A DNA stretch of 1,344 nt, from IMG/VR virus record IMGVR_UViG_2663762948_000003. One strand, written 5' to 3'. Shown piece after piece: positions 1 through 1,344 of the stretch. This stretch comes from a virus. Taxonomy: Duplodnaviria; Heunggongvirae; Uroviricota; Caudoviricetes. The notes beneath the pieces were generated by a model that had not been told where the DNA came from, ran no database searches, and saw only the letters and a program-made list of their open reading frames with translations. The position numbers and the translations under genes were made by a program. Within the stretch, counting starts at the first letter, position 1, and every line of letters starts with the position of its first letter.

Positions 1-480
1 TTCTTCCTCCGTTGCAATTTCCAGATCTGCAGCATCCTGAAGCGGCGCAATATGCTCACTGGCTACCTGCATCAGGCTGTTTTTTGTTTCTTCTGCCTCC
101 CGGATCCGGAACAGTTTTTCTGCTTCCGTATCCTTCACCCAGGCTGTGCCGTTCCACTTCTGATATTCCCCTCCCGGCGACAACCAGGTAACATTTTCCG
201 GTAACGGACCGAGTTCAGAAATAAATAACGCGTCGCCGGAAGCCACGTCATAAACCGTTTTACCCCGATGGTCTTCAACGAGATGCCACGATGCCTCATC
301 ACTGTTGAAAACAGCCACGAAGTCTGCCGGAATATCTGGTGGTGCAATATCGGTACTGTTTGCTGGCAGACCTGTATGAGGCGGAATATATGCGTCACCT
401 TCACCAATAAATTCATTAGTTCCGGCCAGCAGATTATAAATTTTTATGGTCCGTGCTTGTTCACTCATTCTGAATGCCAT
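1..480 (-). CDS. tfa: Tail fibre assembly protein Tfa, N-terminal 160 codons; the 3' end lies beyond position 1
   Basis: My own translation of the minus strand from the ATG at 480..478 gives [160 protein letters not shown], open for all 160 codons to the window edge. This is near-identical to lambda Tfa as I recall it. It is absent from the supplied ORF track, apparently because it has no stop inside the window. A GAGG Shine-Dalgarno sits 8 nt upstream, and the start overlaps the upstream stop (TAATG). Confidence 0.88.
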
Positions 481-493
481 TATGCAAGCCTCA
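478..493 (-). promoter_or_regulatory. tfa ribosome-binding site and stop/start overlap (TAATG)
   Basis: The minus strand reads GTGAGGCTTGCATAATGGCA. GAGG is at 492..489 with an 8-nt spacer; the TAA stop of the upstream ORF (482..480) shares one base with the tfa ATG (480..478). Confidence 0.55.
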
Positions 494-1133
494 CAATATA
501 GTTAAATGCGATGTTTTTGACGGTGTTTTCCGCGTTACCCGCAGCGTTAACGGTGATGGTGTGTCCATGTGAGCCAATCGCAACGGAGTGCGTATGAGCA
601 CCAATATCCACCTCAACCGGATCGAAGGCTTCACCGGTCATGGTGTATTTGCCCTTAAGCACGGCAGAAACTGCCTGCATCTCTTCGACCTGAGCAATGG
701 CCAGCTCTTCGTCACGCATGTTCTGCATGATGATGCGACGGCGGCGGTAAACAGTTGTTGATTGAGTCTCTTTGGTCATTCGCCCTCCTGAGAGACGGGA
801 TTTACGTGCATCCAGTGCATCACGGATGACGGTGATCGCATCGGTGCTGTTAACAAGTTCATCAGCCAGTCCGGCATCAATGGCCTCCTGACCGCTGTAC
901 ACTGCAGCCTCGGTAGCCTTCCAGCGTTCGAATATCTTCACTCGATTAACACCAAGCGCTCGCTGATCAACCGCGCCACCTTCATCTGTGACACGCTGAA
1001 CATCGATGTTCGGGCGCTCTTTCAAAGCCCAGAATGCTTCAGTGATTAATATCGTCGCCTGCTCCTGTGTCATTCCTGGTCGACATATCCAGGCATCCAG
1101 AGCCTCACGAGCCTGTTCAGGAGTGATTTTCAT
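480..1133 (-). CDS. Mosaic ORF (217 aa): in-frame fusion of an unassigned N-terminus with fragments resembling protease C/scaffold Nu3, major capsid protein E and the side tail fibre tip; probably a deletion-scarred remnant, function unknown
   Basis: Intact ORF from ATG 1133..1131 to TAA 482..480 (track protein MKITPEQ...NYIVRLA). Residues 74-128 carry the S49-peptidase-like GLADELV motif followed by the Nu3-type start [10 protein letters not shown]. Residues 129-176 match a lambda E internal segment as recalled. Residues 177-217 carry HxH repeats and the ...[18 protein letters not shown] ending typical of lambda-type Stf. It is too short to hold a protease catalytic domain or a capsid fold. 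Confidence 0.6.
483..605 (-). other. Segment 4 of the mosaic ORF: side tail fibre (Stf) C-terminal tip-like domain
   Basis: [41 protein letters not shown] has HxH motifs and the characteristic C-terminal ending of lambda-type side tail fibres. It sits directly upstream of tfa, as stf does in lambda. Confidence 0.65.
606..749 (-). other. Segment 3 of the mosaic ORF: major capsid protein E internal fragment-like
   Basis: [48 protein letters not shown] matches an internal stretch of lambda gpE as recalled (...[54 protein letters not shown]...). Confidence 0.6.
750..914 (-). other. Segment 2 of the mosaic ORF: protease C C-terminal region / Nu3 N-terminus-like
   Basis: [55 protein letters not shown] corresponds to the end of the lambda C region that precedes and includes the internal Nu3 start. 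Recalled from memory; about one substitution (I for M) against my recollection. Confidence 0.65.
777..789 (-). promoter_or_regulatory. Shine-Dalgarno (AGGAGG) plus in-frame ATG: retained Nu3-type internal translation start inside the mosaic ORF
   Basis: The minus strand reads CAGGAGGGCGAATGACCAAAGAG. AGGAGG is at 789..784 and ATG at 779..777 (Met119 of the 217-aa ORF). In lambda, Nu3 is made from an internal in-frame start within C. Confidence 0.5.
915..1133 (-). other. Segment 1 of the mosaic ORF: unassigned 73-aa N-terminal region
   Basis: [73 protein letters not shown]. It does not match the lambda C N-terminus or any lambda protein I can recall. It is preceded by a G-rich stretch (GGGCGGGGCGG) that may act as a weak ribosome-binding site. 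Confidence 0.4.
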
Positions 1134-1344
1134 TGTTCAACCGCCCCGCCCGCTTCGTCTTACGATATTCATCATAAACTTTGGGATCATACTGAAGCTC
1201 CCCGCCAGATGCCTCCTGTAGACGCATCGCGCGACCTTCAGGAACCAGTATCCCCCAAGCAGCAACACTTGCCAGCCTCACTCCTGCGGCATTGGCAAGC
1301 TTTGTTTTGCTGCCAAAAAAAGTAATTGCGTCAACTTTAAGCAT
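1117..1344 (-). CDS. 3' portion of a hypothetical protein, probably phage-derived; the 5' end may lie beyond the window
   Basis: Track ORF ...[19 protein letters not shown] with stop TGA at 1119..1117. It overlaps the downstream start (1133) by 17 nt in a different frame, a typical coupled phage gene arrangement. The ATG at 1344..1342 is only the first Met inside the window; the frame may stay open upstream. I do not recognise it as the lambda B, A, W or Nu1 C-terminus. Confidence 0.4.

Follow-up and report, generated by a model that had tools for sequence, protein, structure and literature searches.

The window, the whole 1,344-nucleotide stretch of DNA analysed here, contains a 217-codon open reading frame in which parts of four lambdoid phage genes are fused, each in its native frame, at three abrupt junctions. 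The fusion is best read as a by-product of ordinary prophage decay. Three illegitimate deletions would have produced it, in frame by chance aided by the codon phase of TA dinucleotides and with no selected function, and the window would be what remains at the centre of a Qin-type lambdoid prophage after heavy erosion (joint probability about 0.78). Two of the three junctions belong to a wider class of prophage deletion joins centred on TA.

Gene content of the window

All coding sequence of the window lies on the minus strand. The most upstream gene is a dicC-type Cro repressor gene of 75 codons (positions 1117-1344; open reading frame list, Pfam P22_Cro), whose start codon forms the window edge at 1344. 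In relatives this gene is annotated as Cro/CI or DicC. It is followed by the chimera (positions 480-1133, minus strand), delimited by the open reading frame list, segment matches, Pfam fragments and PDB alignments. The last gene is tfaQ (tail fibre assembly; Pfam Caudo_TAP, annotated as tfaQ in relatives), the first 161 codons of which occupy positions 1-483 and which continues beyond the window. The dicC stop codon overlaps the chimera ATG (ATGA at 1129-1133) and the chimera stop overlaps the tfaQ ATG (TAATG at 480-484). These overlaps at both gene boundaries suggest that the three reading frames form one translationally coupled string. tfaQ also has its own Shine-Dalgarno sequence, GAGG, placed 8 nt ahead of its ATG. 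No terminator was predicted over the window. The sole Rfam match was IS009 (RF02111, an sRNA candidate; 152 bits), which lies inside the tfaQ coding sequence (window 1-137, minus strand) and is truncated by the window edge.

Both ends of the window are of Qin type. The reference used was the near-complete 44-kb Qin of E. coli CFSAN064036 (locus L022, NZ_CP028166.1 786000-830000). Window 1-606, which comprises the stf C-terminus and tfaQ, is 98.4% identical to this complete Qin; compared with E. coli strain 21EVA the window shows 12 differences in 750 bp. At the other end, window 910-1344 shares 99.8% identity with dicC-ydaT, the pair that stands beside dicA-ydfABC-dicB in CFSAN064036; the single mismatch is located at the junction.

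In protein order the chimera consists of YdaT residues 1-73, C residues 264-318 (Nu3 26-80), E residues 106-153 and the last 41 residues of Stf. The sequence-only reading of this DNA had proposed such a four-part mosaic with three breakpoints and a continuous frame, and parental alignment and translation confirmed it exactly. The ydaT segment (positions 916-1133, minus strand) is the 5' part of the CII-like gene, 73 codons with the native start codon. It shares 99.8% identity with the ydaT gene in the Qin immunity region; besides CFSAN064036, more than 1,000 other genomes contain the matching ydaT. Pfam detected no YdaT domain in the chimera at E<=0.01, and over its N-terminal 73 residues it agrees at 100% with part of P0010 and P0015, two YdaT-family proteins annotated with PF06254. 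The C/Nu3 segment (751-913, minus strand) covers the end of the S49 protease domain and the start of the scaffold region. Lambda 5203-5372 corresponds to window 749-918 at 98.8% identity (BLAST, ungapped parental tracks), and only positions 116-151 of the S49 profile PF01343 (36 of 154) are covered.

The segment from E, the major capsid protein (607-748, minus strand; residues 106-153 of 341), was likewise found by its match to lambda, where 6449-6598 corresponds to window 601-750 at 99.3% identity. It covers 60 of the 329 positions of the Phage_cap_E (capsid-E) profile, and in the PDB alignment (7vi9/7sj5) the chimera matches lambda gpE residues 103-159. The Stf segment (480-603, minus strand) is the C-terminal 41 codons of the side tail fibre gene, the end of its HxH repeats, and runs to the native stop codon. 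It is 98.4% identical to Qin stf and matches the C-terminal tip of T4 gp37 (residues 199-242 of PDB 2xgf).

Sequence of the three junctions

Sharp breakpoints, as opposed to gradual divergence, had been predicted from the sequence alone, and the nucleotide alignment to the parents shows an abrupt switch at all three junctions. The parents are 98-100% identical right up to each switch. Scoring of microhomology at the breakpoints, which had been proposed as a check, found TAT, TT and TA at J1, J2 and J3 respectively. At J1, between E and Stf (shared TAT at 604-606, minus strand), the coding strand reads ...GGTGGA-TAT-TGGTGC..., or GTGGATAT followed by TGGTGC, where the E parent reads GGATATGGGCC and the stf parent CGGTATTGGTG. 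At J2, between C and E (shared TT at 749-750, minus strand), it reads ...AACTGT-TT-ACCGCC..., with the switch between CTGTT and TACCGCC; the C parent has CTGTTTCAGCC and the E parent GGCTTACCGCC. At J3, between ydaT and C (shared TA at 914-915, minus strand), it reads ...GAAGGC-TA-CCGAGG..., with the switch between GGCTA and CCGAGG, and the parental sequences are GGCTATCGAC in ydaT and GGATACCGAG in C. All overlaps were taken from the parental alignments. The CCGCC-type microhomology that the sequence-only reading had suspected at J2 is absent: in lambda and three Qin relatives, Nu3 continues with TCAGCC (...CTGTTTCAGCCACTGC).

Each switch shows a few shared bases and no inserted element, the pattern by which microhomology-mediated illegitimate deletion is recognised. 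In a random-join simulation the probability of an overlap of at least 2 bp was 0.165 and of at least 3 bp 0.059, which gives a product of about 0.0016 for 2, 2 and 3 bp. Microhomologies of these lengths are jointly unlikely under random joining. Two other sources of the breakpoints were rejected. IS-mediated adjacent deletion fails because there is no IS end at any joint and phage gene passes directly into phage gene. Internal HxH repeats of stf as the source of the common stf breakpoint fail because Qin stf holds only one copy of GGNATNGGNGC.

Size, order and rarity of the deletions

In the reference Qin all parental genes are co-oriented, in the order dicC, ydaT, ..., nohA, A, W, B, C, D, E, ..., stf, tfaQ, pinQ; the fuller intact order is dicC - ydaT - replication - Q - lysis - nohA - A - W - B - C/Nu3 - D - E - tail genes - stf - tfaQ. 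Compared with this reference, J1 removes 15,954 bp (the remainder of E through most of stf), J2 removes 1,078 bp (the Nu3 3' end, D and the 5' part of E) and J3 removes 23,082 bp.

A survey of homologous remnants for the same junctions, also proposed beforehand, recovered part of this series. In strain 21EVA, C, D and E' are fused to 'stf by J1 alone. Metagenome contig L011 (ERZ773111 NODE-5750) carries J1 and J2, with B and full-length C upstream, and J1 was also found in contig L038. J3, and the three junctions together, occur in this window only. The history therefore ran J1, then J2, then J3, and the three-junction allele is a singleton. Under the decay account, three separate RecA-independent deletions would have eroded the co-oriented Qin genes, each rejoined at 2-3 shared bases. 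The first would have removed the stretch from E codon 154 to the last 41 stf codons (16.0 kb), the second that from Nu3 to E codon 105 (1.1 kb) and the third that from ydaT codon 74 to C codon 263 (23.1 kb).

The junctions are rare. Junction-spanning 100-mers were contiguous in 1 (J1), 0 (J2) and 0 (J3) of 5,426 complete E. coli genomes. An exact look-up of the 217-residue protein in a collection of 15 billion proteins returned no entry, and a homologue search gave partial matches only, none of which covers more than 66% of the chimera. The exact 30-mer over J2 was absent from species-representative genomes and that over J3 from the metagenome collection. A 20-mer over J3 hit only unrelated taxa among the species-representative genomes, without further similarity to the window. 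The 20-mer searches gave chance matches in Pedobacter, Bradyrhizobium and soil contigs, and one true match, the J1 and J2 contig L011.

J1 itself is found in three flank haplotypes (21EVA, L011 and L038; window 556-680). The variant sites lie on both sides of the join, 31 nt away downstream and 51 nt away upstream. The alleles at these sites are known from lambda or Qin. J1 had either a single origin with later gene conversion of its close flanks, or a repeated origin.

A class of deletion joins centred on TA

Besides selection, the sequence-only reading had raised non-random joining as a possible cause of the preserved frame. A census of 21 prophage junctions with both parents known, compared with 400,000 simulated random joins, partly supports this. 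The shared bases include TA in 14 of the 21 junctions (0.34% expected, p ~4e-30), and 12 have an overlap of exactly 2 bp (10.7% expected). J1 and J3 fall into this class, which has reused sites and a chance of frame preservation of about 0.4-0.5, but J2, with its TT overlap, lies outside it. Four extra junctions, from contigs encoding fused proteins, added one TA join and three ordinary microhomologies, for a total of 15 of 25.

The same sites recur with different partners. The nohA site GAACTGATA^CCGGGG (L022 ~24009) has four partners, namely W, B, C and a fibre variant, with the qualification that the nohA-B join falls 2 nt ahead of the TA and has none among its shared bases. E has hot sites at L022 ~18111 and ~17848: the E site GGTGGATA^TGGGCC was joined to three different stf positions, and the E site CCTATA^AGGGG was used three times, once as the retained right side. 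Within stf (L022 numbering), site 2158 has E and Nu3 as partners, site 2539 has D and Z, and site 2936 has E and the start of A. Reuse of TA sites extends across prophages from different chromosomal loci and across diverged lineages. The lineages sharing the E hot spot differ in their flanks by 24-29 of 1,302 bp, compared with 3 between the J1-bearing 21EVA copy and intact Qin, and this divergence argues for independent events. The flanks of used TA sites carry 3.64 bits of information against 2.05 +/- 0.34 for random TA sites of the same region, and none of 300 random sets reached 3.64. G occupies position -2 in 16 of the 21 used sites.

A 2-nt staggered exchange, or 2-nt annealing at breaks formed at preferred TA steps, fits these joins best. 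A bolder proposal is that an as yet unrecognised break-and-rejoin activity with a sequence preference makes most of the deletions that erode lambda-like prophages in E. coli. It would be distinct from Pin, with a 2-bp TA overlap and the preference C-N-G-R-TA-Y-S-G, and would over-produce in-frame chimeras, since TA mostly straddles codon boundaries. This is conceivable, although the balance is presently tilted against it. The TA class is the one result here that deserves follow-up. If the pattern holds at scale, prophage erosion would proceed via preferred sites and a specific mechanism and not by random nibbling, which would affect the modelling of prophage age and domestication. It would also explain recurrent 'pseudogene' architectures in E. 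coli annotation and give a neutral reason for an excess of in-frame fusion ORFs.

Frame preservation

The sequence-only reading had calculated that three random deletions would all preserve the frame about once in 27 times, and had seen in this a hint of selection. The figure stands under a uniform model only; it is post hoc, and other remnants show no significant in-frame excess. This was tested in a census of 18 related remnants at Qin, DLP12, Rac and lambda-att loci, with junctions called against the reference Qin and frames determined by translation. The loci L036 and L037 proved to be intact mosaic prophages and contributed no junctions. In this small census, in which the junctions are not fully independent, 12 of 23 distinct gene-gene junctions are in frame (binomial p=0.048), or 9 of 20 without the window's own three (p=0.19). 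Among joins directly upstream of stf, 7 of 12 are in frame (p ~0.07).

The codon phase of TA accounts for a modest excess. Any deletion has at least a one-in-three chance of being in frame because the parental genes are co-oriented. Across all TA dinucleotides in these genes the phases are 0.33/0.16/0.51, with T at codon position 3 in 51%, which gives an in-frame probability of 0.39. At the used sites the counts are 2/5/14 (14 of 21 at position 3), and the probability is 0.51. TA therefore mostly straddles codon boundaries, and the in-frame expectation rises from 0.33 to 0.39-0.51; among the TA-class junctions 8 of 14 keep the frame. Joining chemistry thus predicts an in-frame excess of this modest size. 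Because of the same bias, the odds of the window's triple rise from about 1/27 to roughly 1/12-1/19. The two joins concerned have their TA across a codon boundary (NNT|ANN), the commonest TA phase in these genes. Selection appears unnecessary to account for the three preserved frames.

Of the alternatives, a selected frame survives best, and it is improbable. It holds that an uninterrupted translated frame running into the TAATG overlap keeps tfaQ coupled and prevents Rho-dependent polarity, so that out-of-frame derivatives are lost more often. The overlap of the chimera stop with the tfaQ ATG agrees with this, as do the share of in-frame joins upstream of stf (7/12) and the presence of an intact tfaQ in almost all remnants. 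The reading frame was also open to the stf stop from a native start codon at every stage: that of E in 21EVA, that of C in the contig with J1 and J2, and that of ydaT in the window. Selection for translational coupling would likewise give a frame open at all three stages. However, tfaQ has its own Shine-Dalgarno sequence, and tfa is intact in five remnants (L003, L023, L029, L030, L034) despite an out-of-frame join to stf. The suggestion that absence of polarity on tfa had been selected thus found no support. The in-frame excess, moreover, is non-significant and is of the kind that the TA codon-phase bias predicts. To our knowledge TfaQ has no function in a host without tail genes.

Selection for a translatable product, the other trait that had been suspected, is not supported either. 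The fusion is not conserved across lineages (J1 in one, J2 and J3 in none of the 5,426 genomes), it is absent from the protein collection, its parts are domain fragments, and other remnants are in frame in 9 of 20 cases. Between 21EVA and the window, all five differences inside the fused reading frame are synonymous. This could point to selection but was not taken as a sign of it, since the alleles already segregate in lambda and intact Qin. The five alleles therefore look imported by recombination with functional copies and not filtered in place. In 21EVA (6760-6960) the nohA-B join is in frame, yet a later 1-nt frameshift is present in the portal fragment that was kept; joins that preserve the frame are not being shielded from further decay.

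Far less probable still is a functional new protein, for example one in which a truncated YdaT DNA-binding domain with a novel tail regulates the Qin immunity region. The native ydaT start codon is retained and coupled to dicC, the YdaT portion is identical to part of the family homologues named above, and databases hold many other truncated or fused YdaT variants. Against this, the chimera has been seen in this window only, its other 144 residues derive from a protease, a capsid protein and a fibre tip, in pieces unable to form native folds, and the YdaT domain escapes Pfam detection. Under the decay account the 217-residue product would be an accidental read-through chimera of four domain fragments and not a selected gene, expressed, if at all, from the dicC (pR-like) operon. 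As one more accidental product of prophage decay, it does not warrant annotation as a functional gene.

Candidate joining agents

DNA gyrase and Topo IV, as type II topoisomerases, are attractive as agents of the TA joins, since a TA step can form the centre of a G-segment. In one cryo-EM study the G-segment is reported to be centred on GTAC (PMC13284261); the text of the Topo-Seq paper states no consensus for the centre. These enzymes are nevertheless less likely on reasoning, because a 4-nt stagger should not confine overlaps to TA, and the 2-nt overlap of the joins fits better with a 2-nt process.

Joining at pseudo-sites by pinQ, the Pin-type DNA invertase next door, would account for overlaps of 2 bp as well as for repeated use of the same sites. 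pinQ adjoins tfaQ in Qin, serine recombinases exchange strands over a 2-bp core, and the overlaps here are of 2-3 bp. The sites themselves speak so strongly against it that this agent is very hard to credit. Real Pin (pix) sites recovered from e14 read TTCTCCCAAACC-AA-GGTTT, with an AA core, and AAACCnnGGTwT does not occur in the 44-kb Qin reference. The junction flanks (for example GGTGGA-TA-TGGGCC and CAACTG-TT-TCAGCC) are unlike Pin half-sites, and the same hot spots were used in prophages at loci without an adjacent pin. The arrangement typical of Pin, Gin, Hin and Cin, a 26-bp site with 12-bp half-sites (TTCTCCCAAACC for Pin) around an AA or GA core, was not found at the junctions.

Rpn nucleases have no sequence specificity in vitro (PMC5350276) and were rejected, as this lack cannot explain a preference for TA. 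Resemblances to Chi, dif/XerC sites, DnaA boxes and F nic at individual sites were inspected by eye and were unconvincing.

Comparison with known systems

Short-homology, RecA-independent illegitimate recombination in E. coli likewise gives sharp junctions with overlaps of 0-9 bp and no mobile element. We know of no dinucleotide preference described for it, whereas in the present set 12/21 junctions overlap by exactly 2 bp, 14/21 share TA and sites were reused in independent lineages.

On a larger scale the window resembles the domestication and decay of 'grounded' prophages, for which a Qin size range of 11-97 kb has been reported and in which Qin is eroded stepwise, with chimeric and hypothetical ORFs as by-products, as here (PMC6379469). 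The passages of that review consulted here give no junction sequences, frames or microhomology, and its text lacks the words 'in-frame', 'fusion', 'microhomology' and 'chimeric'.

Further fusions of this general kind were encountered in other genomes. In strain JX2 (locus L025, NZ_CP173160.1; 4480-8223) the C-terminus of Qin stf, beside tfaQ, forms the end of a 1,247-codon CDS annotated as 'terminase gpA endonuclease subunit'; this CDS seems to be one more terminase-fibre fusion, in frame and very large, that comes from a different phage type. A 6.29-Mb genome (locus L039, CP050222.1) holds a Nu3'-'J fusion with a 9-bp overlap, GCTGACGTT, and a rearranged Z/FII fragment between conjugative-transfer (tra) genes. 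Lambda-type late-gene debris is therefore also found outside prophage loci.

Close counterparts of the chimera are found at Qin itself. StfQ of K-12 (b1547) and the remnants of HL15, 21EVA and 2452 share both locus and process with the window. K-12 StfQ consists of the GTG start and two further codons of terminase A, joined at TA to the C-terminal 318 stf codons (MG1655, locus L006, 5840-5848). The annotated stfQ is thus itself an in-frame deletion chimera, and its stf site, 2936, was also used by an unrelated E-stf junction in strain P377. In HL15, Nu3 is joined to the same last 41 stf codons as in the window. The Qin remnants differ from the window in their upstream partners and deletion spans, and only the window reaches into the immunity region (ydaT).

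The chimera can be classed with StfQ and with YmfN of the K-12 e14 element (oweE'-'aaaE; in RefSeq 'chimeric replication protein/phage terminase'). YmfN is likewise an in-frame ORF, produced when a large internal deletion in a cryptic lambdoid prophage brought together, as in the window, an early-region gene and a co-oriented gene of the late region. YmfN has one junction and two parents and is part of a reference genome, whereas the window chimera combines four parents across three junctions and is the only one known so far.
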